The notes under the pieces are model-generated. The model worked only from the letters and a program-made list of their open reading frames with translations, did not search any database and was not told the origin of the DNA. Positions 220-48,322 of a stretch of 64,000 nt of DNA are shown one piece after another. Position 1 is the stretch's first letter. Each line of letters starts with the position of its first letter. Source of the stretch: an uncultured Chloroflexia bacterium (GTDB lineage Bacteria; Chloroflexota; Limnocylindria; Limnocylindrales; CSP1-4); NCBI GenBank assembly GCA_963749705.1, contig CAVVNQ010000015.1:1-64000 (forward strand). Reading direction: 5' to 3'. A program made the translations under genes and the position numbers.

Positions 220-2415
220 TTGATGAAGACAGGACATCGCCCGGTCGCGGGCGCAATCGCGCTGAGCTTCATGCTCGCGCTGGGATCGATCGCGACGGTC
301 CAGGCAGCCCAGCCGCAGGCAGATACCGTCGCCACGCAGCACATCAGCGGAACGATCACCGGGAGCGGGGCCGCCCCCCTCGAAGGCATCCACGTCGGAG
401 CCTTCACCGATAGCGGCGGCTTTGGCTGGGTGACGACCGCCGCCGATGGCACGTACACGCTCCCCGTGCCCGCCGGGATCTACCAGATCTGGGTGTCCGA
501 CCCTGCTGGCATCTACACGTATGGCTACTACAGCAGCGTCGCTGCGGGCCATCACACGCTGGACAGGGACGCGGCAAGCGACGTTGACGCGACCACAGCG
601 GATGTGACGGACATCGATGTCTACATGCCCCTCGTCCTGGCTGCCGTTCCCGGCGCGCCGACCGCCGTGGCCGCGACCGCCGGCAATGCCCAGGCCGCGG
701 TGACCTGGACCGCACCCGCCAGCGATGGCGGCGCCGCGATCAGCGGCTACACCGTGACCAGCAGCCCCGGCGCCAAGACCTGCGCCACCGCCACGACCGG
801 CTGCACCGTGACCGGCCTCACCAACGGCACCGCGTACACGTTCACCGTGACCGCCACCAACGTGGCCGGCACCGGTCCCGCCTCGGCCGCCTCGAGCGCG
901 GTCACGCCGCGCACCGTTCCCGGCGCGCCGACCGCCGTGGCCGCGACCGCCGGCAATGCCCAGGCCGCGGTGACCTGGACCGCGCCCGCCAGCGATGGCG
1001 GCGCCGCGATCAGCGGCTACACCGTGACCAGCAGCCCCGGCGCCAAGACCTGCGCCACCGCCACGACCGGCTGCACCGTGACCGGCCTCACCAACGGCAC
1101 CGCGTACACGTTCACCGTGACCGCCACCAACGTGGCCGGCACCGGTCCCGCCTCGGCCGCCTCGAGCGCGGTCACGCCGCGCACCGTTCCCGGCGCGCCG
1201 ACCGCCGTGGCCGCGACCGCCGGCAATGCCCAGGCCGCGGTGACCTGGACCGCACCCGCCAGCGATGGCGGCGCCGCGATCAGCGGCTACACCGTGACCA
1301 GCAGCCCCGGCGCCAAGACCTGCGCCACCGCCACGACCGGCTGCACCGTGACCGGCCTCACCAACGGCACCGCGTACACGTTCACCGTGACCGCCACCAA
1401 CGTGGCCGGCACCGGTCCCGCCTCGGCCGCCTCGAGCGCGGTCACGCCGTTGGCTCCGGGAACCGTCGTCCGCTATGCCGGCCCCAACCGGTTCGCCACC
1501 GCCGCCGCGGTCAGCGCCAACACGTTCGACCCCGGTGTCGATATCGCGTACATCGCCAACGCCTACAACTTCCCCGATGCCCTCGCCGGCGCCGCCGCAG
1601 CGGGCATGACGGGGAAGCACGGTCCGGTGCTTCTGGTCGCCGCCACCGGCGCGATCAACGCCTCGACCGCCACCGAGCTCACCCGGCTCCATCCCCAGAA
1701 GATCGTCGTCCTGGGCAGCAGCGGCGTGGTGTCCGACGCGGTGCTCAACGCACTCAAGGCATACGCCACCGGCGGCAACGTCGTCCGCTATGCCGGCCCC
1801 AACCGGTTCGCCACCGCCGCCGCGGTCAGCGCCAACACGTTCGACCCCGGTGTCGATATCGCGTACATCGCCAACGCCTACAACTTCCCCGATGCCCTCG
1901 CCGGCGCCGCCGCAGCGGGCATGACGGGGAAGCACGGTCCGGTGCTCCTGGTCGCCGCCACCGGCGCGATCAACGCCTCGACCGCCACCGAGCTCACCCG
2001 GCTCCATCCCCAGAAGATCGTCGTCCTGGGCAGCAGCGGCGTGGTGTCCGACGCGGTGCTCAACGCACTCAAGGCATACGCCACCGGCGGCAACGTCGTC
2101 CGCTATGCCGGCCCCAACCGGTTCGCCACCGCCGCCGCGGTCAGCGCCAACACGTTCGACCCCGGTGTCGATATCGCGTACATCGCCAACGCCTACAACT
2201 TCCCCGATGCCCTCGCCGGCGCCGCCGCAGCGGGCATGACGGGGAAGCACGGTCCGGTGCTCCTGGTCGCCGCCACCGGCGCGATCAACGCCTCGACCGC
2301 CACCGAGCTCACCCGGCTCCATCCCCAGAAGATCGTCGTCCTGGGCAGCAGCGGCGTGGTGTCCGACGCGGTGCTCAACGCACTCAAGGCATACGCCACC
2401 GGCGCCACGAAGTAG
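220..2415 (+). CDS. Secreted cell-surface protein: signal peptide, carboxypeptidase-regulatory-like/Ig domain, 3x fibronectin type III, 3x cell wall binding repeat 2 (CWB2)
   Basis: GGAGG RBS upstream; signal peptide ending AVQAA; FN3 motifs ([31 protein letters not shown]); CWB2 motifs ([27 protein letters not shown]). Confidence 0.9.
644..1449 (+). repeat. Three near-identical 270-bp tandem units encoding FN3 domains
   Basis: Units start at about 644, 914 and 1184; only an isolated synonymous difference seen (gcacccgcc/gcgcccgcc). Confidence 0.95.
1464..2404 (+). repeat. Three near-identical 315-bp tandem units encoding CWB2 domains
   Basis: Units start at about 1464, 1779 and 2094; cttctg/ctcctg synonymous difference. 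Confidence 0.95.
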
Positions 2416-2541: not shown

Positions 2542-3189
2542 CTAGATCAGCCCTTCGCGGATCGCGTAGGCGACCGCGTGCGCCCGGTTGCGGAGCTCCA
2601 GCCGCGACGTCACGTCATGGATGATGTTCTTGACCGTGCGCTCGGAGTAGAACAGCTCGCGCCCCACCTCGGACGTGTCGTAGCCCTCCGCGAGCAGGCG
2701 CAGGACCGCGGTCTCGCGCTCGGTCAGCCCCGAGAATGTCAGGCCGCGCGGCGACAGCACCTGGCGCTGGAGCTGTCCGACCTGGCGCAGCAGGCGCCCG
2801 AGGAGATCCGGGGGCAGGCTGCCCTCATCCGCGGCGGCGGACCGGATCGCGGCGGCAAGGTTGCCCGCCGTGGCCTCGCTCCGCCGGACGACCGCGGTCA
2901 CACCGGCCTCGGCCGCCGCCAGGAGCCCCCGATCGTCGACCCTGGAGATGAGCAGGACCACGCGGCGGATACCTCGCGCACGGTGGCCCCGCAGCTCCGC
3001 GAGCACCGTGCCGTCGAGCTCATCGGCGACGACGAGGGCGACGACGTCGTCGGGCGCATCGCTTTCCGAGACGACGCTGAACCCCTGGGCACGCCGCAGC
3101 TGGCTCGCGATGCCTGCCTGCGAGAGCGGGTCGGCCGCCGACACGACAACCGTGATGCGCGGGGAGAACGGGACAGGCTCGGCGACCAT
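2542..3189 (-). CDS. LuxR-family regulator with degenerate receiver-like domain (CIS-cluster-associated type)
   Basis: C-terminal LTERE..VLRLLAEG..SERTVKN..LELRNRAHAVAYAIREGLI; ATG at 3189 with GGAGG RBS. Confidence 0.9.
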   Translation of the reverse strand: MVAEPVPFSPRITVVVSAADPLSQAGIASQLRRAQGFSVVSESDAPDDVVALVVADELDGTVLAELRGHRARGIRRVVLLISRVDDRGLLAAAEAGVTAVVRRSEATAGNLAAAIRSAAADEGSLPPDLLGRLLRQVGQLQRQVLSPRGLTFSGLTERETAVLRLLAEGYDTSEVGRELFYSERTVKNIIHDVTSRLELRNRAHAVAYAIREGLI

Positions 3190-3303
3190 CAGGAGACCCT
3201 CCTGCCGATCCCACGCCGGTCGAACTGAGACGCGTTGGCCGCGCCCGGGATCGCGCGACCGGACCCTACGTCGAGCCCGTGATCGCCCAGTCAACGCTGG
3301 CTT

Positions 3304-3327
3304 AACGGGCAGCCGGCGATGCCCGTT
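3304..3327. promoter_or_regulatory. Palindromic operator candidate AACGGGCA-n8-TGCCCGTT in the divergent luxR/operon promoter
   Basis: Perfect 8-bp inverted repeat; near copy at 49982-50004. Confidence 0.55.
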
Positions 3328-3403
3328 CGGCTTGCCCGGCCGGCCAAACGGGACGTCCGACTGCGCCCTGTTCGGCTCGCACGCGCACGGCTACACTTCG
3401 CTC

Positions 3404-4654
3404 GTGGGAGCCTCCGTCACCCTGGTCAATCCGGCCGTCACCGTCGAGCCGGGCCAGGAAGCCGCCGTCGATATCCGCGTCCGCAACACCGGCACGGTCG
3501 TCGACGAGTTCGTCCTCGAGGTGCTGGGCGACAGCGCGGCGTGGGCGACGGTCGAACCGCCGGTGCTGTCCCTGTTCCCCGGCGCGGAGGGGACGTCGCG
3601 CATCCTGTTCCGCCCGCCGCGCCAGTCGAGCACGCCCACGGGCGCCGTCCCGTACGGGCTCCGGGCTCGGTCCCAGGAGGACCCGGCCGGATCCGCGGTC
3701 GAGGAAGGGTCGGTCGAGGTCGGCAGCTTCCAGGCGCCGTTCGCCGAGCTCGTTCCGCGCACCTCCCGCGGCTCCCGGTCCGGGTCGCACGACCTCGCCG
3801 TCGACAACCGCGGCAACGCGCGCCTGAGCGCCGAGATCGAGGCAGCCGACGCCGACCGCCTGCTCAAGTTCGACGTCAGGCCGCCGGCCCTGGTGGTCGA
3901 ACCGGGGATGGCCGAGTTCGCGAAGCTTCGCGTCAGCCCGGTCAAGCGCTTCTGGCGGGGCACCCCCAAGACCCGTGCGTTCAAGCTCCTGGTCAAGCCC
4001 GAGGGCGGCGCGCCGATCTCCCTCGACGGGACGCTGCTCCAGGAGTCGATGCTCCCGTCGTGGTTCGTCAAGGCGCTGATCGCCCTGGTGCTGTTGCTGA
4101 TCGCCCTGGTCGTGCTGTGGCTGTTCGTGCTCCAGCCATCGATCAAGAGCGCCGCGTCGGAGGCGGTGGCCTCGCCCCTGGCGAGCCTCAAGGCCGACGT
4201 GAACAGCGCGCTCCAGGCTGCCGGGCTGGCGACCATCCCGCCCGAGGGTGGCGCCGCCGGCGGGCCGACGCCCACGCCCGCGCCGACCGACACGCCGGCG
4301 CCCGGCGAGACCCCCGGTCCCACGGCCACCCCCGGAGCCCCGGTGATCCCCGGTCTGGGCAACGCGATTGACGGGCACCTCGACGAGAACACGAAGTCGT
4401 TCGCCCCCCAGGGGACGTTGTTCATCACGGACCTCGTGTTCTCGAACCCCAACGGCCGTGAGGGCGCGATCGTGGTGCTCCGCGACGCGACGCCGTTGCT
4501 CCAGCTCAAGCTCGAGAACTTCCGCGACTACGACCTCCACTTCGTGACGCCCATCGTGATCGCCGAAGGGCAGAGCCTCAACCTGTCCCTCGTGTGCAGC
4601 GACGGCCAGACGTGCAATCCGGCACTGTTCTACTCCGGGTACCTCAAGCCCTGA
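3404..4654 (+). CDS. Membrane-anchored protein with N-terminal Ig-like (COG1470-like) domains, resembling the 'hydrolytic protein'/effector-core proteins of actinobacterial CIS clusters
   Basis: VEPGQ..IRVRNTGTVVDEF..WATVEPP.LSLFPG..ELVPRT..AVDNRGN; one TM helix then PT-rich linker; GTG 6 nt after TACACT (leaderless). Confidence 0.7.
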   Translation: MGASVTLVNPAVTVEPGQEAAVDIRVRNTGTVVDEFVLEVLGDSAAWATVEPPVLSLFPGAEGTSRILFRPPRQSSTPTGAVPYGLRARSQEDPAGSAVEEGSVEVGSFQAPFAELVPRTSRGSRSGSHDLAVDNRGNARLSAEIEAADADRLLKFDVRPPALVVEPGMAEFAKLRVSPVKRFWRGTPKTRAFKLLVKPEGGAPISLDGTLLQESMLPSWFVKALIALVLLLIALVVLWLFVLQPSIKSAASEAVASPLASLKADVNSALQAAGLATIPPEGGAAGGPTPTPAPTDTPAPGETPGPTATPGAPVIPGLGNAIDGHLDENTKSFAPQGTLFITDLVFSNPNGREGAIVVLRDATPLLQLKLENFRDYDLHFVTPIVIAEGQSLNLSLVCSDGQTCNPALFYSGYLKP

Positions 4655-6729
4655 GGCCCGCGATCGCGCGGTCGGCCGCCATCGGCCTGGTGCTGCTGCT
4701 CGTGTCGCCCATGCCGGTTGCCGCCGTGCCCGAGGCTCCGCGGGTCAGCGGGCAGGCGACGGTCCCGACCGGCGCGCCGCTGCCGGCTCCGCCCGGCACG
4801 ACCAGCCTCGTCTCGTACCGGTTCGGGGGCAGCCCTGGCGCAGGGCCGGCGGGCGGCGGCCCGTCCGCGCAGGTCTCCATCTCCGCCGACGGACGGTATG
4901 TGGCGTTCACCTCGAATGCCCCGGACCTCGTGACCGGTGACACCAACGGCGCGCTCGACGTGTTCGTGCTCGACCGGAGCACCGGGAGGATGACGCGGCT
5001 CGGCCTGCCGGGCGGCGTGCCGGTGCCGCCGGGCGGCAGCGCGGGGGAGCCGTCGATCTCGGCGGACGGCCGGATCGTCGCCTACACCTACCAGCCGCCG
5101 TCCGGCTTCACGACCGTCGCCCTGGGCTCGGTCGTGCTCGCCTGGGATCGCACGACCGGGGCCGTCGAGGTCGTGTCCAAGACCACCACGGGCGCCAATG
5201 CGGCGGGCAGCCGGCAGGCATCGGTATCGGCCGACGGCCGGTTCGTGGCGTTCGTCTCGGCCAGCGGGTCGGTCGCCGGCAAGGACGGCAATGACAAGCC
5301 GGACGTGTTCCGCTACGACCGGGTGGCGAAGCAGACGGTCCTGATCTCCGCCCGGACGGACGGGATCAGCACCCCCTCCGGGACGTCGAACGATCCATCG
5401 ATCTCGGCGGACGGCAACGTCGTCGCGTTCGTGTCGGACGCCGGGGGCACGATCATTCGCGACGAGATCGGGTCCGGCACCCAGGTCTACGTCCGGGACG
5501 TGGCGGCCGGGGTGACCACGCGCGTGAGCGCGCCTCCCGGCGCCGGCTCGGGCGAGCAGCCGGACGGCCCGTCATCGGCGCCCTCGATCTCGGCGGACGG
5601 CCGGTATGTCGCCTTCGAATCGTCGGCCACCAACCTCGTGCCCGGCGATAAGAATGGCGCGGCGGACGTGTTCCGCAAGGATCGGACCTCGGGAACCATG
5701 ACGCTGGTGTCGGTGACGTCGACGGGAGCGCAGCCCAAGGGCTCCAGCGGGCAGGCGGCCATCTCGGCCGACGGACGCGTCGTCGCGTTCGCCTCGACGG
5801 CGTCGGACCTGGTCGCGATGGCCGGCGGCATCGTGCCTGCGGCCGTGGTGCTGGGCGGCACCGAGATCTACGCGCGTGACGTCGATGCGGGCCAGACCGT
5901 GCTGGTGTCGGTCAACCTCAAGGGCACCGCCGGCGGCGGACGCAGCCAGACGCCGGCCGTGAGCCGCGACGGACGGTTCGTTGCCTTCGCGTCCACCGCC
6001 GAGGGGCTGGTGGCGGGCGACGGCAACAAGCTGAGCGATGCGTTCCTGCGCGACATGCCGCCCGTGCCGCAGCTCAGCCCGCCGGTGCTCGACCTCGGGG
6101 CGCGTGCGGTGGGGGTCACCAGCCTGCCGGCCGCAGCGATCCTGTCCAACGCCGGATGGGGTCCGCTCCCGGTCACCGGGGCGACGATCACGGGAGCGAT
6201 GGCCGGGGACTTCGCCGTCGTCGCCGACAGCTGCGCGGGCGCCGTGCTCCATCGCACCGAGGCCTGCACCGTCTCGGTCACGTTCACCCCGACAGCACCC
6301 GGGAACCGGACCGCGACGCTCGAGGTCGCGGACGCGTTCAGGGGCTCGCCGCGGACCGCGCGACTGACGGGCGCCGCGTCGCTGGCCAAGCTCGAGCTCG
6401 ATCCGCCGATCGGTCCTCCGGGCACCGTGACCATCGCGACCGGCTCGGGGTTCCCGCCCAACACCGCGGTGCGCCTGCAGTGGAGCACGGGGATCACGCC
6501 CCACCTGCCGCCGGTCATCACCGACGCAAAGGGCCGGTTCCGGATCCAGGTCCTGGTGTTCCACAACGACCGGACCGGATCGCGCGAGCTGACCGCGGAC
6601 GCGGTCGACGGGGTCGCCTTCCCCGAGACGGCCGCCACGATGTTCGTGAGCCAGGCATCGACGGTGCCGCCGAGCTTCGTGATCCTGCGGCTGCTCGATC
6701 TGCCGATCGTCCTGGTCATGCGGGGCTAG
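4651..6729 (+). CDS. Secreted TolB-like/PD40 beta-propeller protein with choice-of-anchor D (ASH-like) Ig domain
   Basis: Repeated SISADGRYVAF.S.A.NLV.GD.NG..DVF; L...EACTVSVTFTPT..G.RTATL; signal peptide. Start uncertain (CTG overlapping the upstream TGA). Confidence 0.85.
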   Translation: MRPAIARSAAIGLVLLLVSPMPVAAVPEAPRVSGQATVPTGAPLPAPPGTTSLVSYRFGGSPGAGPAGGGPSAQVSISADGRYVAFTSNAPDLVTGDTNGALDVFVLDRSTGRMTRLGLPGGVPVPPGGSAGEPSISADGRIVAYTYQPPSGFTTVALGSVVLAWDRTTGAVEVVSKTTTGANAAGSRQASVSADGRFVAFVSASGSVAGKDGNDKPDVFRYDRVAKQTVLISARTDGISTPSGTSNDPSISADGNVVAFVSDAGGTIIRDEIGSGTQVYVRDVAAGVTTRVSAPPGAGSGEQPDGPSSAPSISADGRYVAFESSATNLVPGDKNGAADVFRKDRTSGTMTLVSVTSTGAQPKGSSGQAAISADGRVVAFASTASDLVAMAGGIVPAAVVLGGTEIYARDVDAGQTVLVSVNLKGTAGGGRSQTPAVSRDGRFVAFASTAEGLVAGDGNKLSDAFLRDMPPVPQLSPPVLDLGARAVGVTSLPAAAILSNAGWGPLPVTGATITGAMAGDFAVVADSCAGAVLHRTEACTVSVTFTPTAPGNRTATLEVADAFRGSPRTARLTGAASLAKLELDPPIGPPGTVTIATGSGFPPNTAVRLQWSTGITPHLPPVITDAKGRFRIQVLVFHNDRTGSRELTADAVDGVAFPETAATMFVSQASTVPPSFVILRLLDLPIVLVMRG

Positions 6730-6735
6730 GGGCTC

Positions 6736-7923
6736 ATGCCCGACGCCGCATCGATCATCTGCCGCCGGTGCGGGACCGCCAACACGCCGGGCGACCAGTT
6801 CTGCGGATCGTGCGGGGCGTTCCTCGAGTGGGAGGGGCAGCCCGCCGAACCCGGATCGTCCGCGGATCCCGGCGCCGGACCGGGTGCGGCCGCCGGGCCG
6901 GTGCCGGTCGGAAGCGGCCCGCCGGTGGCCGGAGGCGGCTCACCGGTCGCCGCAACGAACGTTCCGCCCAGGACGTCGGGGATGCCGGACATCGTGCCCT
7001 CGGATCCGATCTGGCCACCGGAGCCCGACCGGTCCACCGCTCCCTCCTCGCCGGCCGTCCCGCCCGCCGACGACGCCGCTGCCGGCCTGATCCGCTGCCC
7101 GTCGTGCGGGATCGCCAACCCCGCGACCCGGACGTTCTGCCAGTCCTGCGGGACCACGCTTGCACAGGCCGCCCGTGTGATCGAGCCCGACGCCGCCGCG
7201 ATCGCCGCCGCCGTCGCCCGCCAGCCCGCCGGGCCATCCGCCGCCACGGCACCCGTTCCGCCCGCCGCGCCCCGGGCCGGCCGGGCGTCGCGGGGGTTCC
7301 CGACGTGGATCCTCGTCATCGGGGGTCTGGGGATCCTGTTCGGCGCCGGCGTCGTCGCGGCGTCGATGCTGCTCAGCGGTCCGGGGCCCGGGAGCATCGC
7401 GACATCCGCCCCCGAATCGGCCGCGCCATCGAGCGCCGTCGTCTCCGCGGCACCCAGTCCCACGCCGGCACCGGTGCAGCTGACGCTCAAGACGGCCAAG
7501 GCATCGTCGGTTGTCGGCAACCGGGCGAAGTTCGCGGCGGGCATGGCGATCGACGGCGACCCCAAGACCTGCTGGCAGGAGGGCAAGACCACCGAGAAGG
7601 GCCAGTGGATCGAGGTGACCTTCGCCAAGGCGCGGGTCGACGCAATCACTATGTACAACGGGTATGAGTTGTCGGACGATGCCTACTTCGCAAATCTGCG
7701 GCTGAAGGACGTCACGGTGTCGGTCAACGGCGGAGATCCGATCATGCTCCAGCTGAAGGACGCGCAGGGGCCCCAGCGGTTCGAGCTGGGTGGCATCGAC
7801 GATGCAACGAAGCTGCGGATCACGATCGTTTCGACCTACGCCTCGAAGAAGACGGCGTACGCGAACAGCCCATTCGACGACGCGGCGCTCAGCGAGGTCA
7901 TGCTGGAAGGCGCACCCCAGTGA
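6736..7923 (+). CDS. Zinc-ribbon + TM + discoidin/NADase-type glycan-binding domain protein
   Basis: Two CxxCG.AN....FCxxCG ribbons; TM helix; C-terminal ASS..A..AIDGDPKTCWQEG..GQWIEVTF..NGY..ALSEV. Confidence 0.8.
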   Translation: MPDAASIICRRCGTANTPGDQFCGSCGAFLEWEGQPAEPGSSADPGAGPGAAAGPVPVGSGPPVAGGGSPVAATNVPPRTSGMPDIVPSDPIWPPEPDRSTAPSSPAVPPADDAAAGLIRCPSCGIANPATRTFCQSCGTTLAQAARVIEPDAAAIAAAVARQPAGPSAATAPVPPAAPRAGRASRGFPTWILVIGGLGILFGAGVVAASMLLSGPGPGSIATSAPESAAPSSAVVSAAPSPTPAPVQLTLKTAKASSVVGNRAKFAAGMAIDGDPKTCWQEGKTTEKGQWIEVTFAKARVDAITMYNGYELSDDAYFANLRLKDVTVSVNGGDPIMLQLKDAQGPQRFELGGIDDATKLRITIVSTYASKKTAYANSPFDDAALSEVMLEGAPQ

Positions 7924-9101
7924 GCGCGTTCGGGGCCGCGGTCGGCAAGGTCGTCGGCCTGGGCGGTGGGCCGCAGCTCACGGCGGTGCTGCTCATCGGC
8001 GGGCTCGTGGTCGGTGCCGCCGCCGGCGGGTTCATCGCCTCCGGGCCGGGCGGCTCGCAGGGAACGGCCGGCGCGCAGCTCGAGATCTATCCGTGCCCGG
8101 ACCAGGGACCCGCGATCGCAACGGTGTCGTCGGGGCAGCAGATGCTGGTCACCGGCAAGACCGCGGACGGGGCCTGGCTGCGGATCTACTTCCCGGCACC
8201 GGGCCGGACCGAGGGCTGGGTCCAGGCCCAGGCGCTGACGCTCGATTCGTCCGCGGATGCGCTGCCGGTGGGGGAGTGCCAGCCGGTGACCGCGGCCGTC
8301 GGTTCCGTGGCGCCGGGCCAGACGCTGACCGCGATCGAGAACAACACGCCATCGCCCTCGCCGACGCCGGTCCCGACGGCGACGCCGAATGCCACGCCAT
8401 CGCCAGCGGCCTCTCGGCAACGACCAGCAAGATCAGCTATGACACCGGGTCCTACTGTCCGACCGCGGCGAAGAAGGTCACGTTCAAGGTAACGGCGAAG
8501 GACGACCACGGCGTCTCGGGCGTCACCCTGTTCTGGCGCGCCCCGGGCGCGGCCTCTATACCCAGGTACCGATGACCAAGGCCACGGGTGACGCCACGAG
8601 TGGCACGTGGCAGGTCACGCTCGACACCAAGGCCGATGGCACACCACCGCGGGCAAGCTCGCCTATTACGCCGAGGCCACGGACGTCGGGGGCGAGACGG
8701 ACGGACCCCGGCGAGCGGCGCCAGCACGATCACCGTGGCGGTGTGCGCGAACACCGGGCCCGCGATCACGGCAGCCAAGTCCTCCTCGGGCTCGACGTTG
8801 TACTGGGACCCCCTGCGCGTCGGGTCGTGCGCGATCTCGACATCCATCACCGCCAACGTGGACGATCACGGCTGTTGACCGTCGAGTCGGGCATCTCCAG
8901 CGTCTATCTCTACTTCACCGACTCGGCAACGGGTCGTGCATCCAGTCGAAGACAGATGTCGGCCGCTGGAGGCGACACGGACACAGTTGTGATCGACGCT
9001 GCGACAGATTCGATCGCAATCGGGGATCGTACGATCCGACGTACGCGAAGGCCGACCAACGCCGGGTCAAGCTGACGGCCCAGTCCGACAACGTCCGTTG
9101 A
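7920..9101 (+). pseudogene. Membrane-anchored SH3-like + Ig-like repeat protein broken by several frameshifts
   Basis: SH3b-like VTGKTADGAWLRIY..GWV in 7920-8492; protein-like text continues by switching among the frames of ORFs 7790, 8572, 8607 and 8588. Confidence 0.6.
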
Positions 9102-9120
9102 TTCGTGGTCAAGTGCTGAC

Positions 9121-11028
9121 ATGAGCGCCCTCCCCGGCATCGTCGCCAAGATCGCGCTGTTCCTGGTCACCGCCGTCATCGGCGCGACCGTCGCGACCGT
9201 GGCCGTCAGCGCGCTCAAGGACCACTCCCCGGTCTCGACCGCCGGCGAAGCGCCCGAGTTCATGCTCGCGGGCGCCCCGGACAGCCCGAGCGGTGAGCTC
9301 CCGGTCGCCTTCGACGTGTCCGAGAACCCCGCGGACGCCTCGCCCGTTCCCACGCTGGCGCCCGAGGACCTCGCCCTTGCCGCCAACGCGCTGATCGGCG
9401 CCGAGCCGGTCGTCGCGCTCAACCCGACCGGGTTCCCGAGAGTCCCACCGGTCACGCAGTTCGACGGCGGCCCGTTCCAGAACGCGAACTGCACGCTGGC
9501 CTCGGGCGCGATGCTCGCCCGGCTCGGGTTCGGGATCGTGACCACCGGCTCGATCCTGCGAACGCTCCAGGACGACCAGGACGGCGGCACCGGCCTCGAC
9601 GACCTCGGCGTCGCGCTGTGGCGCGGCTACGGCATCTCGTTCCGCGCGGGGTCGATCCGGACCGAGCAGCTCAAGAACCTGCTCGCCGCTGGGTACGGCG
9701 CCGTCGTCCAGGGGGACTACTCGAAGGTGCCCCCGCCGCTCCGCCTGCAGGCGTCGTTCACGGGCACCCACGCGATCTACCTCGACGGCTATTACCCGGG
9801 CGATCCGTCAGCCGGCAAGCCGCCGGCGTACTACGTGATCGACCCGCTCGGGCGGCCGCACGCCGGGTACCAGGGCGACTGGTGGCCGGCCTCGATCGTC
9901 GATGCCTTCGCGACGTCCTTCGGCGGGGGACGGGTCACCGCGATGTGGGGCTTCCCGCCGGGCGGGACGCCGCCGGACGTGGTCGGCGCGGACGTGCTGC
10001 CGATCCCCAGCTCGGGCGGGACCGGTCCGTCGCCCTCGCTCGCGCCCGGCGAGACCCCGGCGCCGAGCCTGGCGGCACCGCCGGAACCGGGCGATGAGGG
10101 CCCGCCCACCCCGGTCGCGCCGTCCGGGATCGACACCGCCGGCACGATCGGCGACCTCACGGTCAATCCGGTGTTCACGATCTGCTTCATCAGCCCGCCG
10201 CCCGCCGGCTGCCCGGACGGGGTCAAGGGGACGTTCCAGGTCGACCTGCCGGTGATCCAGGTCAAGCTCGGGCCAACGGTGCACGTCGTGTTCGTCGATT
10301 CGGACCGGCCCAACATCGCGATCGTGGGGTTCACCGTCGACCCACCAGCTGCAGGCACCGTCCACTTCTGGCAGGCGGACGGGACGCCGGCGACGATCGG
10401 GACGCCATCATCGATGTCGTCGATCTCGCTGTTCGGCAAGACGGTCCTGCTCGCCCGGCTGGACGTGCTGGCCTCGACCACGTATCGCTTCCAGGCGATC
10501 GCGGGCAGCGGGCTGTTCGCGGGCCAGAGCCCGGTCGGCGAGTTCACCACCGGCGGCGGGGTGGAGCAGTTCGACGTCTCGCTCTCGTCGGCATCGAACC
10601 CGGTGTTCAAGCTTGAGACCGGGCTGTCGCCGTACCTCCACGTGGCCGGCGACTCATATGCCAAGCCGATGATGCGGCTGTCCGATCTGAGCGGCTCGTC
10701 ATGCCAGGGGACCGCCAAGTACGGCGGTGTCGACTACTGCGTCGATATCGGGTCGGTCGCCGTGCCCACCTGCACGCGGGCGCAGGTGGCGTACTCGCTG
10801 GTGGGCATCGATGCCACAGGCGTCCTGGTCCGCGCCTACCCGGCGGTCGAGGGGGTGTCACCGGATGGTGGACCGGTGTTCGACGGCGTGCTCGAGGCGA
10901 GCGGATCGGCGCCGGCGGGGAGCGTGAGCCTCGGCTGCCTGACCTCCGGGCTGTCGTACTACATCGTGATCGATGCGGTGGGCGACGCCGCCGGCGTGCT
11001 GGCGTCGAAGACGGTGGCCGTGCCGTAG
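9121..11028 (+). CDS. Membrane-anchored papain-like (C39-like) cysteine peptidase with C-terminal beta-rich domains
   Basis: QFDG..QNANCTLASGAM (Cys), GTHAIYL (His), YYVIDP (Asp); N-terminal TM/signal. Confidence 0.7.
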   Translation: MSALPGIVAKIALFLVTAVIGATVATVAVSALKDHSPVSTAGEAPEFMLAGAPDSPSGELPVAFDVSENPADASPVPTLAPEDLALAANALIGAEPVVALNPTGFPRVPPVTQFDGGPFQNANCTLASGAMLARLGFGIVTTGSILRTLQDDQDGGTGLDDLGVALWRGYGISFRAGSIRTEQLKNLLAAGYGAVVQGDYSKVPPPLRLQASFTGTHAIYLDGYYPGDPSAGKPPAYYVIDPLGRPHAGYQGDWWPASIVDAFATSFGGGRVTAMWGFPPGGTPPDVVGADVLPIPSSGGTGPSPSLAPGETPAPSLAAPPEPGDEGPPTPVAPSGIDTAGTIGDLTVNPVFTICFISPPPAGCPDGVKGTFQVDLPVIQVKLGPTVHVVFVDSDRPNIAIVGFTVDPPAAGTVHFWQADGTPATIGTPSSMSSISLFGKTVLLARLDVLASTTYRFQAIAGSGLFAGQSPVGEFTTGGGVEQFDVSLSSASNPVFKLETGLSPYLHVAGDSYAKPMMRLSDLSGSSCQGTAKYGGVDYCVDIGSVAVPTCTRAQVAYSLVGIDATGVLVRAYPAVEGVSPDGGPVFDGVLEASGSAPAGSVSLGCLTSGLSYYIVIDAVGDAAGVLASKTVAVP

Positions 11029-11100
11029 GACGTTCCTGGCGAAGGCGCCCGCCGCTCGAGCCGCAAGCGCGCGGTGAGGCGCCGCGGGCATCCTGCACGG

Positions 11101-11874
11101 ATGGACGACGCAAGCGTGGGCCGCGCACTCCGGTCGATCCGGCGTCACCAGCGCCTCCGACAGCGGGACGTCGCGGCGCGGGCCGGGCTCAGCCAGCAGG
11201 TCGTGTCCGATCTCGAGTCGTTCGGGCTCGACCGCGTATCGGTTGCCGTGACGCGTCGCGTTGCCATCGCGCTCGGGGCCGAGCTTTCGGTCTCGGTCCG
11301 CTGGCGCGGCGCGCAGGTCGATCGCGTGCGCGACGAAGGGCATGCGGAGGTGGTCGCCGAGGTGGCGGGATGGCTCGAGGCCGCCGGCTGGTCGATCGCG
11401 GCCGAGGTGACCTATGCCTGGTATGGCGAGCGAGGGTCGATCGACCTGCTGGCATTCCATGCGAGATCGCGGATGCTGCTCGTGGTCGAGGCGAAGACCG
11501 AGATCGCCTCGGTCGAGGAGACGCTTCGGAGGCACGATCAGAAGGTCCGGCTGGCCGATCGGATTGCGCGGGAGCGATCGGGGTGGTCGGCGAGCGACGT
11601 GACGCGGCTGCTCGCCGTGCGTGACACGCGAACCTCGCGGCGCAGGATCGAGCGCCACGGCGGTGTGTTCGGACGCACCTACCCGATGCGCGGCTGGGCG
11701 GCGAGAGGCTGGCTGTCGTCGCCGGCACCGACGCCGGGTCTGCTGCTGTTCGTGTCATGCACCGCGCGTCCCGGTGCTAGACAGGGTTCTGCCACGCTCC
11801 AGCGTGTCCGCCACCCGCGATCACGCACGGCGGGAGTGTCGGCGGCGTCGCGAACCGGCCCCGGACCGGTCTAG
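11101..11874 (+). CDS. XRE-type HTH fused to a PD-(D/E)XK restriction-endonuclease-like domain
   Basis: LRQRDVAARAGLSQQVVSDLE HTH; E..GSIDLLA..LLVVEAKT nuclease motif; ATG 6 nt after CATCCT. Confidence 0.8.
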   Translation: MDDASVGRALRSIRRHQRLRQRDVAARAGLSQQVVSDLESFGLDRVSVAVTRRVAIALGAELSVSVRWRGAQVDRVRDEGHAEVVAEVAGWLEAAGWSIAAEVTYAWYGERGSIDLLAFHARSRMLLVVEAKTEIASVEETLRRHDQKVRLADRIARERSGWSASDVTRLLAVRDTRTSRRRIERHGGVFGRTYPMRGWAARGWLSSPAPTPGLLLFVSCTARPGARQGSATLQRVRHPRSRTAGVSAASRTGPGPV

Positions 11875-42996: not shown

Positions 42997-44169
42997 TCAG
43001 CGCCAGAGATGGCCGTACGAGTGCTCGCCCTCCAGGGTGCGGCCGGCGGCGAACCGGGACAGCGCGTAGGGCGAGATGTCGACGGTGGTCGCTTGCCCGT
43101 CGAGGATCAGCTCGGTCATGCAGGCGCCGACGGCGGGCGCGGTCTTGAACCCCGTGCCCGAGAACCCGCACGCGACGTAGAACCCCTCCGGGCCGACGCG
43201 ATCGAGGATCGCGTGCTGGTCCGGGGTGATGCCGTCCTGGCCACCGTGCGCGGTCCGGTACGTGCCCTGTTCCATCCACGGGACCCGCGAGCACACGCCG
43301 TTGACGAGGGCGTCGATGGTCGAGCGGGCGAGGGGGTCCTCCGGGCGGTCGGGGGAGCCGCCGACGACGTTGTCGGTCTCGAGCCCGACGAGCATCAGCT
43401 CCCGGCCCTCGGGACGGAAGTAGATCCCGGCGGAGTGGTCGATGATGACGGGGAAGCCGGCCGACCGGCCCGCCGGCAGGCCGAAGTAGGCGGTGGCGTG
43501 GCGCCACGAATCGACCGGGAGCTCGACGCCCACGGTGGCCGCGAGGGGCGCTGCCCAGGCCCCCGCGACGTCGACCACGACCGGCGCCTCGAACCGCCCC
43601 TTGTCGGTGTCGACACCGATGACGCGGTCGCCGTCCGTGGCCACGCCCCGGACGAAGCAGCCGCCAATGTAGCTCGCGCCGAGCCGTCGGGCGGCGGCGA
43701 GGAACCCCGATGCAGTTCCGGTGGGATCGGCATAGCCGGACTCGGGCTCATGGGCCGCGATCGCGACGTCGTCGACGCGGATGCCGGGCATCAGGGCCGC
43801 GACATCATCGGCGCCGATGGTCGTGGTCGGGATGCCCACGCCCTTGAGCATCTCGACGTTCGCCCGCAACGCATCAGCCAGCTCCGCGGGAACCAGCTGG
43901 ATGAAGCCGGTTCGGACGAACCCGCAGTCGCCGTCGCCGACGATCTCCGCCCAGTCGCGGAAGTACGGGTGCGACGCCCAGGCGAATCGTGCCTCGCTCT
44001 CGAGGTCGTAGTGCATCCGGACGAACCCGGATGACCGGCCCGTGGCGCCGGCGGCAATGGTGGATCGCTCGAGTACGAGGACACGGACACCCCGACGCGC
44101 GAGGTGGAACGCGAGGCTCGCCCCCTGGACGCCTGCTCCCACCACGATCACGTCCGCGGTCTGCGCCAT
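42997..44169 (-). CDS. FAD-dependent oxidoreductase (DAO/sarcosine oxidase beta-like)
   Basis: GAGVQG, ATGRSSG, TPDQH, GFSGTGFK. Confidence 0.9.
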   Translation of the reverse strand: MAQTADVIVVGAGVQGASLAFHLARRGVRVLVLERSTIAAGATGRSSGFVRMHYDLESEARFAWASHPYFRDWAEIVGDGDCGFVRTGFIQLVPAELADALRANVEMLKGVGIPTTTIGADDVAALMPGIRVDDVAIAAHEPESGYADPTGTASGFLAAARRLGASYIGGCFVRGVATDGDRVIGVDTDKGRFEAPVVVDVAGAWAAPLAATVGVELPVDSWRHATAYFGLPAGRSAGFPVIIDHSAGIYFRPEGRELMLVGLETDNVVGGSPDRPEDPLARSTIDALVNGVCSRVPWMEQGTYRTAHGGQDGITPDQHAILDRVGPEGFYVACGFSGTGFKTAPAVGACMTELILDGQATTVDISPYALSRFAAGRTLEGEHSYGHLWR

Positions 44170-44256
44170 GTTGCCCGGGCCTCCGTCCAACGCCGTCACG
44201 TGCCCGGTCGCATGCCGGGTCGCGACAAGTCTGCCCGAAGTCCGGCCGCCGCTCGG

Positions 44257-44306
44257 GCGATCCGCGCACGGGACGCGATCCGCGCACGGGACGCGATCCG
44301 CGCACG
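44257..44306 (+). repeat. 18-bp tandem repeat GCGATCCGCGCACGGGAC x~3
   Basis: Read directly. Confidence 0.85.
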
Positions 44307-44336
44307 AGAGACGAGACGTCTCGGCGCCCACGAAGA

Positions 44337-44364
44337 AGGGCCCGGGCGGTGCTGCCCGGGCCCT
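44337..44364 (-). terminator. Hairpin terminator after the SIMPL gene
   Basis: agggcccgggc-ggtgct-gcccgggccct, followed by TCTT on the minus strand. Confidence 0.65.
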
Positions 44365-44395
44365 GGATGCCGGCGCTCCTCCGCGCAGGCGGTCG

Positions 44396-45184
44396 TCAGT
44401 CGATGAGGAACGACACCGAGACCTGGATCGTAACGTCGGTCGAGCCGGCCATCACCGGGGTGGCTGCGTCCGCGGCGAGAGCCCCTGCCGCGTATTCCCT
44501 GCCGTACCAGACCGGCGTGGACACGGACTCGCTCATCGATGCGACACCGGTGATCCGGACGTTGACGCCGGCCGCAAGCGTGTCGGCCTTGGCCTTCGCG
44601 TCCTTGACCGCGGCCTCGCGCGCGCTCGCCTCGGCGGCGGCCCGGTCGGCCACGTCGAACGAGATCCCATCGACGGACGAGGCCCCGGCGGTGACCGCGT
44701 CGTCGAGCACATCGGACATGACATCGAGCTTGCGAACCGTCACGGTCACGATGTTCCGGAGCTGGTAGCCGCGGATCTTGGGGGTCGCGTTCTGCGGGTA
44801 GTCGTACACGGGGCCGAGCGAGACCGCTGACGTCTGGATGTCCTTGTCGTCGATGCCCAGCTTCCTGACCGCGGCGATCACCTTGGTCATCGCGGCCGCC
44901 GCCGCGTCGCGTGCGGCCTTGGCAGTCGACTTCTCGGTGACGACGCCGAGGCTGATCGTGGCCATGTCCGGCGTGACGACCACCTTGCCGCTGCCGGTGA
45001 CCGAGATCGTGTGCTCGGGCGGCTGGTCGGCCGCGCCGGGCGTGAGGGCGGTCGTTCGCCCGGGGACGAGGACGCCGGCAAGCGCGGGTCCCGCGAGCAG
45101 GCCGACGAGCAGGCCGCCGACCGCGGCGATGGTCACCCAGGCGCCGATGCGACGGCCCCATCGAGAGAGGATCGAGTCGTTCAT
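44396..45184 (-). CDS. SIMPL (DUF541) domain secreted protein
   Basis: ISVTGSGKV...PD.A, DIQTS..L.P.Y, AVKDAKAKA..LA. Confidence 0.9.
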   Translation of the reverse strand: MNDSILSRWGRRIGAWVTIAAVGGLLVGLLAGPALAGVLVPGRTTALTPGAADQPPEHTISVTGSGKVVVTPDMATISLGVVTEKSTAKAARDAAAAAMTKVIAAVRKLGIDDKDIQTSAVSLGPVYDYPQNATPKIRGYQLRNIVTVTVRKLDVMSDVLDDAVTAGASSVDGISFDVADRAAAEASAREAAVKDAKAKADTLAAGVNVRITGVASMSESVSTPVWYGREYAAGALAADAATPVMAGSTDVTIQVSVSFLID

Positions 45185-45357
45185 GTCCGTGTTCCGTCCC
45201 CTGGTGGTGTGTTGCGGCGCGCTTTGGTCGCCGTCCGGTCATCCAGGGTTCAGACGCCACCGGGGCCCGATCGGTTGCCTGGGGTGGCGATCGTGCGCGG
45301 GAACCTCTCGTGCTGCTACCCTTCGGCCGCGTCCCGGAGCGAGAGGAGTGGGGGAGG

Positions 45358-47106
45358 TTGGGGGACCAGGCCGAGCGGCTGGTCGAGACGCAGCTCCGCG
45401 CCGTGCTGCCCGAAGGCGCGCGCCTGTACGCCAACGTCCGGTTCGTCGCGCGAACACGCCCCGCCGGGCCGGCGCACGACGGCGAGGCGGACATCGTCGT
45501 GGTGCATCCGGACAACGGAATTCTCGTGATCGAGACCAAGGCCGGCGCGCCCAGCCGCGACGGCCGTGGCCGCTGGTTCATCGGCAGCCACGAGCTCACC
45601 CGGTCTCCGTTCGAGCAGGCCGAGGCCGCCAAGCGAGATCTGGCCCGCGCGATCGAGGCGCTGCCCGCGTGGCCGTCCGGCCGGGAGCTCCGAGCCGGAC
45701 ACGCCGTCGCGTTCCCCGACGCGGACCTCGCGAGCCTCCCGGCCGGCCACCCGTTGCTCGGCCCGGACGCGCAGCCTGAGATCATCCTCGACGCCGACGC
45801 GCTGGCAACGCCCGAGAAGGCAAAGCGGGCCCTCGACCAGGTGTGGGACTTATGGGTCGGCGACGGCAGCCGCGGTCATCCACCGGGTGACGACGGGGTC
45901 GCGCTGATCGACCACTACCTCGCGCCCGCCCTCGAGCTCCGGCGGTTGCTGCGGCACGGCATCAAGGACGATCGCGAGCGTCTCCTCCGCGCATCGAACG
46001 CCCAGCTCCTCGTCCTCAACCATGCCCGCCACGTCCGGCGGGCGAGCATCGTCGGGCCGGCGGGGAGCGGCAAGTCGCTGGTCGCCGTCGAGCAGGCTCG
46101 CCGCCTGGCGAAGATGGGCTATCGAACGCTCTTCGTGTGCTTCAACCAGCCACTCGCGAGCGCCGTCATCCGGGAGCTCGACCGCGATGGCGAGCCCGAC
46201 GACCGCCGGCCGCGGGTGACCACCTTCCATCGGCTGTGCGAGACGATGGGCCGGCAGGCGGCCACGCTCGGACCCAAGCCGTCGGAGCCGATCCCGCAGG
46301 CCTGGTGGGACGAGGCGTTGCCCGGCGCGCTGCTGGGGGCGATCGACACCCTGCCCGACGAGCGGTTCCACGCCATCGTCGTCGACGAGGGCCAGGACTT
46401 CGAGCCGGGCTGGCTGGAGTCGCTCCAGTTCCTGCTGTTCGAGCCCGAGACCGGCGTGTTCTGGGTGTTCCACGATCCCGGCCAGGCACTGTTCCGCGAC
46501 GACCGGGTGGGGGAGCTGGCGGGGCTGGTCGAGCTCGAGCTGTTCGAGGACTATCGGTGTCCCGCGCCGGTCGCCGAGCTCGCGGCTCGCTTCTACCGCG
46601 GCCCGACCGCGCCGATCTCGATGACCGACGGTGCCGGCGATGCGCCGAGGCTCATCACGGCCGACCCCGGGCACGGCACCGTGGACTGCGTCCGCCGCGA
46701 GCTTCATCGCCTGGTCGATGTCGAGGGCGTCCGGCCATGGCAGATCGCCGTCCTGTCGGGCCGCGCCGCTCCGCGCAGCGACGTGTGGTGCCAGCGCGTG
46801 TTCGGCAATCTCGTCCTGTGGAACGGGGCGATCGACGAGGATGGCCAATCGCTTGGCCTGGCGGCCGACGAGGTTCCCGACGAGCCGCCCGACGGCGCGA
46901 TCGTGCGCTTCGAGAGCATCCGCCGGTTCAAGGGCCTCGAGCGCGAGGTCGTGATCCTATGCGAGCTGCCCGACGACGGCCCACGCCTCGACCAGCTCCT
47001 GTACACGGCCCTCACCCGCGCGACCACGCACCTGATCGTCATCGCGCCGCCGGCGCTGCATGAACGACTGGCGGGCGCCTCGGATCCACGTTCCCGCCGG
47101 CACTAG
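45358..47106 (+). CDS. NERD nuclease fused to a superfamily 1 (UvrD-like) helicase
   Basis: GEADIVVVHP..LVIETK; GPAGSGKS; VVDEGQD; FKGLE; YTALTRA. Start uncertain (45310 or 45358). Confidence 0.88.
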   Translation: MGDQAERLVETQLRAVLPEGARLYANVRFVARTRPAGPAHDGEADIVVVHPDNGILVIETKAGAPSRDGRGRWFIGSHELTRSPFEQAEAAKRDLARAIEALPAWPSGRELRAGHAVAFPDADLASLPAGHPLLGPDAQPEIILDADALATPEKAKRALDQVWDLWVGDGSRGHPPGDDGVALIDHYLAPALELRRLLRHGIKDDRERLLRASNAQLLVLNHARHVRRASIVGPAGSGKSLVAVEQARRLAKMGYRTLFVCFNQPLASAVIRELDRDGEPDDRRPRVTTFHRLCETMGRQAATLGPKPSEPIPQAWWDEALPGALLGAIDTLPDERFHAIVVDEGQDFEPGWLESLQFLLFEPETGVFWVFHDPGQALFRDDRVGELAGLVELELFEDYRCPAPVAELAARFYRGPTAPISMTDGAGDAPRLITADPGHGTVDCVRRELHRLVDVEGVRPWQIAVLSGRAAPRSDVWCQRVFGNLVLWNGAIDEDGQSLGLAADEVPDEPPDGAIVRFESIRRFKGLEREVVILCELPDDGPRLDQLLYTALTRATTHLIVIAPPALHERLAGASDPRSRRH

Positions 47107-47128
47107 GCCGAGCAGGACTCGAGTCGCC

Positions 47129-47542
47129 CTATGCCGCCTGGGCGAGCACGGCGGCACGACGCACGATCGCGAGCAGCATGCCCGACTCGTAGGCGCCTGC
47201 CAGCTCGCCCTCCGTGAACCGGTCGCCGCGGATGATCGCGGTGATGAGCTTGACCAGGTCGTCCGCGCTGGCGCCGGCGACCAGACCTGGATCTGCGATG
47301 AGCCTCTGCGCATCGGGCGTGGCGACCCAGGCCATCCAGTCGAACGGGACGACCCAGCCGTTCGATGCCGCGATGCGGCGGAAGTCATCGGCAGCCGCGC
47401 TGTATTCGAACCAGGGCATGTGCCACACGCCGTCGGCGTCAGGCTCGCCGGTCACCCAGTGGCCGATGGTGAAGTCGGGCGCCATCAGGACGGGCTCGAA
47501 CGCCGCCAGCGCCAGGAGGCGATCGCGCTCGGTCGCCGTCAT
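47129..47542 (-). CDS. DUF6508-like protein
   Basis: FDWMAW..LITAIIRGDRFTEG.L..A..SG. Confidence 0.7.
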   Translation of the reverse strand: MTATERDRLLALAAFEPVLMAPDFTIGHWVTGEPDADGVWHMPWFEYSAAADDFRRIAASNGWVVPFDWMAWVATPDAQRLIADPGLVAGASADDLVKLITAIIRGDRFTEGELAGAYESGMLLAIVRRAAVLAQAA

Positions 47543-47552
47543 CGTCGTCCGC

Positions 47553-48266: not shown

Positions 48267-48312
48267 GTGTGTTCCCCCTTCTTGATACGTTGCGCGGTAT
48301 CGCGCGCCATCA

Positions 48313-48322
48313 CGATATATCG
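48313..48322. promoter_or_regulatory. CGATATATCG palindrome, probable PadR autoregulatory operator
   Basis: AT-rich perfect palindrome just upstream of padR. Confidence 0.6.

Follow-up and report, generated by a model that had tools for sequence, protein, structure and literature searches.

How does a divergent luxR gene followed by a closely spaced operon of membrane-anchored or secreted proteins, several of them resembling the neighbors of Streptomyces contractile injection systems (CIS), come to stand in a stretch of DNA that encodes no injection machine? The question is raised by positions 2542–11028 of a 64-kb window, i.e., of the whole stretch of DNA analyzed, which corresponds to C15:1–64000 of genome G000 (contig CAVVNQ010000015.1) from a Limnocylindria-type Chloroflexota bacterium and starts at base 1 of the contig. 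The answer that we hold to be probable is that this segment represents the accessory arm (i.e., the end that carries the regulator, effector and membrane adaptors) of a complete, single-copy, class IId and probably cytoplasmic CIS, the core of which is found on an overlapping contig, C20, of the same assembly. The operon encodes, in this order, a protein related to the Streptomyces Sco4256-58 effectors (3404–4654, hereafter the effector-like protein), a β-propeller protein (PD40-Ig), a bitopic protein with the layout of the Streptomyces adaptor CisA (6736–7923, the CisA-like protein), an SH3-containing protein (SH3-Ig) and a putative papain-like peptidase (TM635). The divergent luxR and the operon with these domains had been recorded in a preliminary description of this DNA and are recovered by Pfam and NCBIfam profiles, hydropathy and codon-position G+C; the window having a G+C content of 72%, the reading frames were picked via codon-position G+C and the third-position values of the named frames (0.83–0.94) indicate that the genes are real.

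Profile searches detected no sheath, tube, VgrG, baseplate or AAA ATPase gene within the 64-kb window, so that the earlier statement that these genes are missing is literally correct; they are missing because the window begins at a contig end, and the machine is on C20, directly upstream beyond the contig edge. Indeed, when all the contigs of G000 were searched, the profiles of sheath, gp19 tube and Pvc16_N (DUF4255) matched only on C20, tblastn found each of the core genes in single copy, all on C20, and the sheath, tube, VgrG, baseplate J and DUF4255 genes for which a genome search had been suggested were all located there. BLASTN aligns C15:1–2089 with C20:20187–22275 (99.67% identity) and C15:1773–8389 with C20:21643–28260 (99.70% identity), the latter alignment reaching the last base of C20, with a total of 26 mismatches between C20 (28,260 bp) and C15:1–8389. 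On the other side, C19:47755–49672 equals C20:1580–3497 (99.74%), the right end of C19 dovetailing with C20. Because the contig ends dovetail, the order of the CIS island is C19 end, C20, C15 start: C19 ends with a second Sco4256-like gene, a gene for a Zn-ribbon–transmembrane (TM)–PD40 protein and a STAND-SARP regulator; C20 contributes the CisA-position gene, the baseplate-to-sheath operon, the DUF4255 cap, the AAA ATPase and the eCIS-core protein; C15, with which the window starts, contributes the fn3-CWB2 gene, luxR and the operon.

These overlaps are best read as assembly redundancy rather than duplication, because tblastn gives each core gene once and other contig ends are redundant too. 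A true 8.4-kb duplication was also weighed as the source of the C15/C20 overlap and not retained, near-complete relatives having one copy and other contig ends of G000 being also redundant. Contig ends with 98–99.9% identity to the interior of other contigs are seen in G000 for C7/C17, C9/C18, C12/C18, C14/C6, C22/C6, C19/C20 and C20/C15, and the assembly probably includes redundant contigs of haplotype origin. Words of the window are shared with four soil-metagenome runs of a single study, in small shares only (0.06–0.13), from which no habitat is claimed.

The same order is found in relatives. Within a class sample of 121 genomes the effector-like protein is present in 7 and Pvc16_N in 8, including all 7; G000 excluded, the protein occurs in 6 of the 35 genomes of the same family and in none of the 85 from four other families, and in 6 of the 7 genomes (G000 being counted on C20) it lies on one contig with Pvc16_N, at a distance of 4–14.5 kb. 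The order STAND-SARP regulator, CisA-position gene, baseplate-to-sheath operon, DUF4255-AAA-eCIS_core, LuxR, operon is common to G002, G005, G038, G062 and G119, and the locus L024, whose protein is 93% identical, has the whole order on a single contig, the fn3-CWB2 gene between eCIS_core and LuxR included. A broader comparison concerned the best 80 of 175 relatives, taken with one genome per species (78 with Chloroflexota-type titles and 2 from Actinomycetota, with no Streptomyces locus among them), each gene being counted over the loci long enough to show it (eligible loci). CIS core genes are upstream in 47 of the 54 loci having at least 9 kb of upstream DNA; Pvc16_N is present in the genome for all the other 7 and, by comparison of coordinates, lies 13–17 kb away and apparently on the same contig in 5 of them, 45 kb away in one and on an unmatched contig in one. 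A different, more distant CIS, with a sheath 39% identical, occurs in the class relative G092 (C4:20000–40000, L020/L021), where no Sco4256-like, PD40-Ig or CisA-like neighbors were detected with these queries.

As to the type of machine, all core components on C20 score over the curated Pfam cut-offs, no fibre-like Pfam match was found among the C20 genes scanned and, as in other IId clusters, a gene for a TM, sugar-binding-type protein (C20:3497–5380) follows the baseplate genes in place of a conventional fibre. Compared with the CIS of S. coelicolor and S. venezuelae (sco4242–sco4263, IId), the cluster agrees in its core genes and in their order (a pair of tube genes and a LysM tube initiator besides VgrG, gp25, baseplate J, Tail_P2_I, DUF4255 and an AAA ATPase), and shares with it a LuxR-family gene in the cluster, the absence of a tail-fibre gene and the Zn-ribbon/TM/glycan-domain gene after the baseplate genes. 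The best PDB matches of the sheath, over its full length, are 8BKY/9GTP (expectation value (E) 3.5e-201) and 8BL4/9GTS (E 4.8e-198), the next match being at 7e-123; according to the data-availability statements of PMC10066040 and PMC12237407 these entries are Streptomyces CIS models, and the same papers assign the Streptomyces CIS to subtype IId. Judged by these PDB matches, the sheath groups with the Streptomyces CIS sheaths. The sheath was also run against 301 genomes of an Actinomycetota phylum sample, of which 21 gave matches at E ≤ 1e-60; in the Streptomyces-like genome G167 (7.5 Mb) the sheath matches 8BKY at E 3.9e-268 and the cluster order is the same. The C20 system can therefore be regarded, with good though not full confidence, as a complete class IId (Streptomyces-type) CIS, which is probably cytoplasmic.

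A 2026 paper in the ISME J (PMC12998442) places Chloroflexota and Deinococcota systems in IId, with Streptomyces synteny, and reports intracellular particles in Roseiflexus. The present system resembles that of the Roseiflexus castenholzii lineage in being a IId-type CIS of Chloroflexota syntenic with that of Streptomyces, cytoplasmic action being proposed for Roseiflexus (PMC12998442); unlike Roseiflexus, for which that paper reports no close cisA homologues, the lineage considered here has proteins of CisA architecture. Our literature searches returned no paper joining Limnocylindria with contractile injection. The system differs from that of Streptomyces in its host, in that cytoplasmic action, reported for Streptomyces, is a prediction here, in a longer accessory arm (PD40-Ig, a second CisA-like gene, SH3-Ig and the papain-like protein) and in an additional pair of effector-like and Zn-ribbon-PD40 genes with a STAND-SARP regulator on the other flank.

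Three further C20 products deserve mention. The 734-aa protein at the tape-measure position matches no Pfam family. Between it and the tube, C20:13852–14364 encodes a 170-aa protein, also with no family match, the C-terminal ~125 residues of which are 63–77% identical even in Actinomycetota clusters, an identity equal to or above that of the sheath (58–81%), though over shorter aligned stretches. Directly 3′ of the AAA ATPase gene, C20:19337–20149 (L006:9337–10149) encodes a 270-aa eCIS_core (DUF4157) protein (E 6e-32), kept in 48 of the best 80 related loci; the eCIS_core domain marks cargo associated with extracellular CIS (eCIS). The LuxR gene is found ~2.3 kb past this gene.

The first operon gene provides a link with the Streptomyces cargo. 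The Sco4256-58 proteins are described as sharing an N-terminus that resembles PapD, followed by a single TM segment and a C-terminus that varies (PMC10066040, PMC10020575), the architecture of Sco4257/58 being N-domain plus ricin-type lectin (PMC10066040). Casu et al. 2023 reported toxicity of these proteins in E. coli; in their triple mutant the tube lumens were empty and the phenotype was that of CIS loss (PMC10066040). Vladimirov et al. 2023 detected Sco4256 in particles that they had purified and reported homologues from IId clusters of Chloroflexi (PMC10020575). The effector-like protein aligns over residues 11–288, i.e., N-domain and TM, with a Streptomyces ricin-type-lectin protein (38% identity, E 8e-57) that has the architecture published for Sco4257/58, and over its full length with a Streptomyces “COG1470 family” protein (35% identity, E 6e-72), so that the connection with CIS stated in the preliminary description for the VEPG..RNTG.VVDE protein is sustained. 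With a profile of the N-domain, 7170 cluster representatives are matched at E ≤ 1e-3, of which 1177 reach E ≤ 1e-30, the match being N-terminal in nearly all cases; a Streptomyces protein is matched at E 8.8e-67, and the Streptomyces “COG1470 family” protein was one of the 10 hits looked up.

The protein has one TM segment at about 214–240 (hydropathy peak 214–233). Its AlphaFold2 (AF2) model, made from 12 sequences with a mean predicted local distance difference test (pLDDT) of 80.7, comprises two N-terminal β-sandwiches (1–213, pLDDT >90), a long helix (219–256), a disordered linker and a C-terminal sandwich (320–415); the Ig/ASH-PapD-like domains are predicted to be cytoplasmic and the small sandwich 320–415 extracytoplasmic. 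The top Foldseek matches are ASH/PapD-type domains of Hydin-like central-apparatus proteins and CEP192 SPD-2, with FimC lower in the list, and the PapD/FimC-type matches fit the published remark that HHpred likens the first domain of the homologues of Sco4256 to chaperones of pili (PMC10066040, PMC10020575). By architecture and by similarity to other Streptomyces proteins, the effector-like protein thus appears to be a member of the Sco4256-58 effector family, with which it shares the conserved N-terminal Ig/PapD-like region, the single TM, the variable C-terminus and the linkage of its gene to a IId CIS; unlike the ricin-type lectin of Sco4257/58, its C-terminal domain is a small β-sandwich, common to some Streptomyces proteins (35% identity). 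Its paralogue on C19 carries yet another C-terminal domain.

The second link is provided by the CisA-like protein. CisA (SCO4242) is reported to be a bitopic protein whose cytoplasmic N-terminus is largely disordered, whose stretch before the TM is rich in Cys and probably binds Zn, and whose outer domain, of ~150 aa, is of carbohydrate type; it is reported to be encoded just after the baseplate genes (PMC10020575, PMC12237407) and to be needed for CIS contraction in situ, i.e., for firing (PMC12237407, PMC10020575). The window protein likewise has a Cys-rich Zn motif before a single TM and a carbohydrate-type C-terminal domain: it matches Zn_Ribbon_1/DZR and NADase_transloc (Pfam) and reaches 90.6 bits with NF047619 (NADase_discoid) against a cut-off of 38, and the Cys ligands of its Zn ribbons are invariant in 14 orthologues. 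Its paralogue C20:3497–5380 (E 6e-11), with a Pro/Glu-rich N-terminus, a Zn ribbon at 372–393, a TM region and a 50-bit NF047619 match, follows Tail_P2_I, i.e., it occupies the CisA position, and in G167 the gene after Tail_P2_I encodes a Zn ribbon, a disordered region, a second Zn ribbon, a TM and an NF047619 domain (51.4 bits). This common domain and Zn-ribbon/TM layout agree with the CIS association that had been stated for the Zn-ribbon/NADase-type protein. The likeness to CisA thus lies in the bitopic layout, the cytoplasmic N-terminus that is for the most part disordered, the Zn-binding Cys motif before the TM and the ~130–150-aa outer domain of carbohydrate-binding type, NF047619 being shared with the CisA-position protein of G167; the difference is that the window gene belongs to the LuxR operon, the baseplate-adjacent position being held by its paralogue, and that the island would possess two, perhaps three, adaptors as against one in Streptomyces. 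A complex prediction that paired baseplate J with residues 1–150 of the CisA-like protein gave an uncontrolled value of 0.30 against a mark of 0.32, which carries no weight either way.

A third link is the regulator, a 46%-identical homologue of which is found inside the Streptomyces-like CIS cluster of G167, in line with the association stated earlier for this LuxR subtype; NCBIfam response-regulator families match the protein below their cut-offs. The palindrome in the divergent promoter region (see table) is perfect in G000 only at this site (C15 and C20 copies), and with one mismatch allowed per arm 11 sites, the two perfect copies included, were counted against 9 in a reversed-sequence control; its core is conserved at ≥80% of columns in 66 aligned upstream regions. 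We infer that the LuxR protein binds this candidate operator. A consensus σ70 scan detected no promoter at the operon start and a terminator scan gave one hit, at chance level; the sequence at the start suggests that the operon mRNA may be leaderless.

Features of the island. Positions refer to the window unless a contig is named; the last column gives the number of eligible loci in which the gene is present.
Position	Strand	Feature	Evidence or remark	Eligible loci
220..2415	+	fn3-CWB2: secreted cell-wall-binding protein, fn3 x3 + CWB2 x3	Pfam fn3 E 3e-45, CW_binding_2 E 4e-44	
2542..3294	-	LuxR/GerE-family regulator, NarL-type layout	GerE helix-turn-helix (HTH) E 3e-13; divergent from operon	70/72, divergent
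3304..3327	.	Perfect palindrome AACGGGCA-N8-TGCCCGTT	Candidate operator, divergent promoter region	
3392..3397	+	-10-like hexamer TACACT	6 nt before GTG start at 3404; conserved in 66-locus alignment	
3404..4654	+	Sco4256-58-family (effector-like) protein	Ig-like Cep192_D3 match, TM, motif VEPG..RNTGTVVDE	
4594..6729	+	PD40-Ig: signal/anchor + PD40 beta-propeller + choice-of-anchor D/ASH (HYDIN-type) Ig	PD40 E 4e-23; NF012200 58 bits vs 45	66/67, directly downstream
6736..7923	+	CisA-like bitopic protein	Zn ribbons 9-28, 119-142; TM ~187-215; NADase-type discoidin 252-390	52/63
7920..8866	+	SH3-Ig: TM-anchored SH3 + Ig-repeat protein	TM; SH3_3 E 1e-4; frameshifted, 3′-truncated in assembly	33/59
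9121..11028	+	TM635: TM-anchored, putative papain-fold (C39_2/C70-like) ~100-285, Pro-rich linker, fn3-like sandwiches 383-635	N-terminal TM	33/57
11074..11874	+	HTH (XRE-type) protein	HTH_37/HTH_31 (Pfam)	
C20	-	Tail_P2_I, Baseplate_J, gp25, VgrG (Phage_GPD + Phage_base_V), CIS_tube+LysM, gp19 tube; then 734-aa protein, 170-aa protein, second gp19 tube, sheath	Pfam	
C20	+	Pvc16_N, WHD+AAA ATPase, eCIS_core (DUF4157) protein	Pfam	
C19:43250-44665		Second Sco4256-like gene, different C-terminal domain	In C19:43250-49322 = L022:13250-19322	

The remaining products of the operon, PD40-Ig, SH3-Ig and the papain-like protein, are lineage-specific additions conserved in Limnocylindria-type Chloroflexota. 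By hydropathy, PD40-Ig begins with a signal or anchor sequence and ends in a hydrophobic tail; its start codon is uncertain, the reading frame overlapping the preceding gene by 61 nt, and it is separated from the CisA-like gene by a 6-nt gap (6729–6736), the latter gene in turn overlapping SH3-Ig by 4 nt (7920–7923). Outside Chloroflexota a Sco4256-like gene followed by a PD40-Ig-related gene is found at L094:10001–12390, in an Actinomycetota metagenome-assembled genome, where the relative is 40% identical over its last ~100 residues, and at G319:C40:13981–17940, where the PD40 match is weak.

For SH3-Ig the domains previously described are present, and the gene is broken in this assembly. The intact orthologue (L024:14503–16047) has 515 aa organized as TM, SH3 and Ig-like repeats; relative to it the window copy lacks a single base at six places between 8403 and 8869 and has an extra base at one or two, there is no counterpart for the last ~190 codons, and the about 255 bp at 8867–9120 have no counterpart in orthologues. 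The run of indels begins just past the end of C20 (window 8389). Short-read contigs of the soil-metagenome run X2 (95–99% alike, depth 2.5–5) restore the missing bases at 8403, 8641 and 8698 and at 8865 continue like the intact orthologues, a gap in short-read cover at 8881–9063 within 7600–9400 carrying no meaning; because of these restored bases, a consensus error is at least as likely as decay, and 8389–9120 looks like a strain-variable or poorly polished region.

The “C39-like peptidase” is at present a lead. Residues Q113, C124, H217 and D241 of TM635, which would form the catalytic set, are invariant in 20 orthologues, and all the ESM-Atlas language-model neighbors of residues 95–295 belong to C39_2/C70 clusters at 0.95, which also counts as a lead; the family profile, on the other hand, failed, the 635-aa window protein having no Pfam or NCBIfam match, Peptidase_C39_2 (PF13529) reaching just E 0.12, with one of the 20 orthologues, and nothing relevant coming from a profile search of the PDB. 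The AF2 model is poor (mean pLDDT 52.6), with C124 starting a helix and H217 a strand at pLDDT <50–70, and by Foldseek only the C-terminal ~250 residues match, to fn3 pairs. TM635 may accordingly be called a putative C39-like peptidase.

On the C19 flank, the neighbor of the second Sco4256-like gene encodes two Zn ribbons, a hydrophobic stretch and a PD40 propeller in one chain, the hydrophobic stretch being taken as a TM from the translation by eye rather than from a hydropathy scan, and the same region (43250–49322) contains the gene of the 1007-aa STAND-SARP regulator. Two “SARP genes” at C20:125–3147 look like a redundant copy of the C-terminal half of this regulator. In the regions retrieved from G062, G038 and G119, these queries did not detect the pair formed by the second Sco4256-like and the Zn-ribbon-PD40 genes.

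The two genes bordering the segment appear to be peripheral. The fn3-CWB2 gene, located between the CIS core (C20) and LuxR, consists of tandem 270-bp and 316-bp units that are 99–100% identical, the C20 copy (C20:20400–22300) having one 316-bp unit fewer than that of C15; a homologue occurs in 2 of the best 80 related loci, which puts it outside the conserved set. In the close relative L023 (98% identical) the locus likewise ends just upstream of the LuxR gene. The gene at 11074–11874, with a homologue in 7 of the best 80 related loci, is probably outside the unit.

The reading of the segment as the accessory arm of a IId CIS is carried by what was observed of gene adjacency, of conservation and of the architecture of the domains, and by homology with proteins of Streptomyces, and several points weigh against it. 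The contig joins rest on overlaps in an 88%-complete, metagenome-type assembly with many redundant ends and not on a closed genome. Homology was established to Streptomyces or Streptomyces-like proteins other than Sco4256 and SCO4242. When the CisA-like protein is compared with the CisA-position protein of G167, BLASTP aligns the Zn ribbons only (E 2e-5, 6e-5), the C-terminal domains being non-significant pairwise (E 3.6); because pairwise BLAST aligns the Zn ribbons only, what is claimed is a shared architecture and domain family and not orthology. Furthermore, its gene is the third of the LuxR operon and does not directly follow the baseplate wedge genes as cisA does, the connection between palindrome and LuxR comes from position and conservation, and SH3-Ig (33/59) and TM635 (33/57) are patchy among eligible loci. 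PD40, SH3-Ig and papain-like proteins have no documented role in CIS, and the main texts of the two Streptomyces papers do not mention propeller, SH3 or peptidase genes; no paper joining “contractile injection system” with PD40 was found in the literature searched. Finally, expression, localization and roles in firing are for this lineage predictions from the genes, by analogy with Streptomyces.

Among the other explanations, the one that survives best considers the operon a lysis or release cassette, likened to the holin-endolysin sets of tailocins and eCIS, in which the TM proteins and a membrane-anchored papain-like wall peptidase would open the envelope, the particles then acting extracellularly. 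It can appeal to the language-model clusters nearest to TM635 95–295, which are phage-rich C39_2/C70 clusters (one of them auto-named “lysozyme family”), to the presence in the operon of domains of the wall-binding type (SH3, discoidin, PD40) and to the toxicity of Sco4256-58 when expressed in E. coli (PMC10066040). It remains unlikely in view of the presence of TM635 in only 33 of the 57 eligible loci, as against the near-universal effector-like and PD40 genes, of the weakness of its assignment as a peptidase and of the reports that the closest systems studied, those of Streptomyces (PMC10066040) and Roseiflexus (PMC12998442), are cytoplasmic and unreleased.

Quite improbable, in our opinion, is that the genes serving the CIS are limited to the Sco4256-like and CisA-like ones and that PD40-Ig, SH3-Ig and the papain-like protein are ordinary envelope proteins whose genes share the island. 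The three indeed have no counterpart in the 40-kb Streptomyces-like cluster of G167, the distribution of two of them is uneven already inside the lineage and the domains of all three are common in wall-associated proteins generally, but in 66 of 67 eligible loci the gene after the effector-like one is PD40-Ig, in the Actinomycetota locus L094 a related C-terminal part comes after it too, the genes overlap or abut (by the 4 nt at 7920–7923 and with the 6-nt gap at 6729–6736) and a Zn-ribbon-TM-PD40 fusion adjoins the second Sco4256-like gene on C19. The conclusion of the preliminary description, that the 64-kb window with no core CIS gene contains either a detached cargo/adaptor module, its CIS being encoded at another place, or an envelope complex derived from a CIS and working without a tail, is highly improbable and represents a contig-edge artefact, because the complete CIS sits on the overlapping contig C20, which matches the first 8389 bases of the window at 99.7% and carries the full machine 2–3 kb upstream of LuxR, single contigs of relatives having the same contiguous order and the class sample containing 0 genomes with the effector-like protein but without Pvc16_N. 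More generally, when machine genes seem to be “missing” from a stretch that starts at a contig end, the overlapping contigs are worth checking.

If the segment is the accessory arm of a IId CIS, its mode of action can be outlined, all the steps being taken from the Streptomyces system. The LuxR protein would bind the palindrome at 3304–3327 and control a leaderless operon. The effector-like protein would be a cargo or effector of the Sco4256-58 type, in which the cytoplasmic Ig-like pair could be the conserved handle tying the protein to the particle and the TM helix with the small outer domain the variable, membrane-acting part. The CisA-like protein, like its baseplate-adjacent paralogue, would function as a CisA-type adaptor whose cytoplasmic Zn ribbons face the baseplate and whose outer glycan-binding domain reads or holds the wall, thereby recruiting the particle to the membrane and licensing firing, while PD40-Ig, SH3-Ig and the papain-like protein may act as its partners outside the cytoplasm, binding or cutting the wall at that site.

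A bolder proposal, which as a whole must be considered doubtful, is that the five operon products, the CisA paralogue encoded next to the baseplate genes and the Zn-ribbon-TM-PD40 protein of C19 might jointly build a modular envelope docking station for the cytoplasmic CIS. This station would combine a shared cytoplasmic Zn-ribbon handle with swappable outer sensors (discoidin or PD40 propeller), SH3-Ig acting as a helper that binds the wall and the papain-like protein cutting it, so that the state of the envelope would set the place and time at which the tail is fired, perhaps outward through the wall. If true, this would be a functional analogue of the membrane complex of the type VI secretion system, independently evolved in eCIS-derived systems.

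The question addressed by this locus is how a free cytoplasmic CIS finds the membrane and decides to fire, CisA being, to our knowledge, the only factor known for this in Streptomyces. The parts list of the present lineage, with two or three adaptors of CisA architecture differing in their outer domains, a near-universal PD40-Ig and optional wall-binding and putative wall-cutting proteins, offers concrete candidates for a docking or trigger complex. Moreover, a IId system with partners of the Sco4256 and CisA types is extended, probably, into Limnocylindria-type Chloroflexota, and this extension bears on the tie that has been proposed between IId systems and filamentous, multicellular life.

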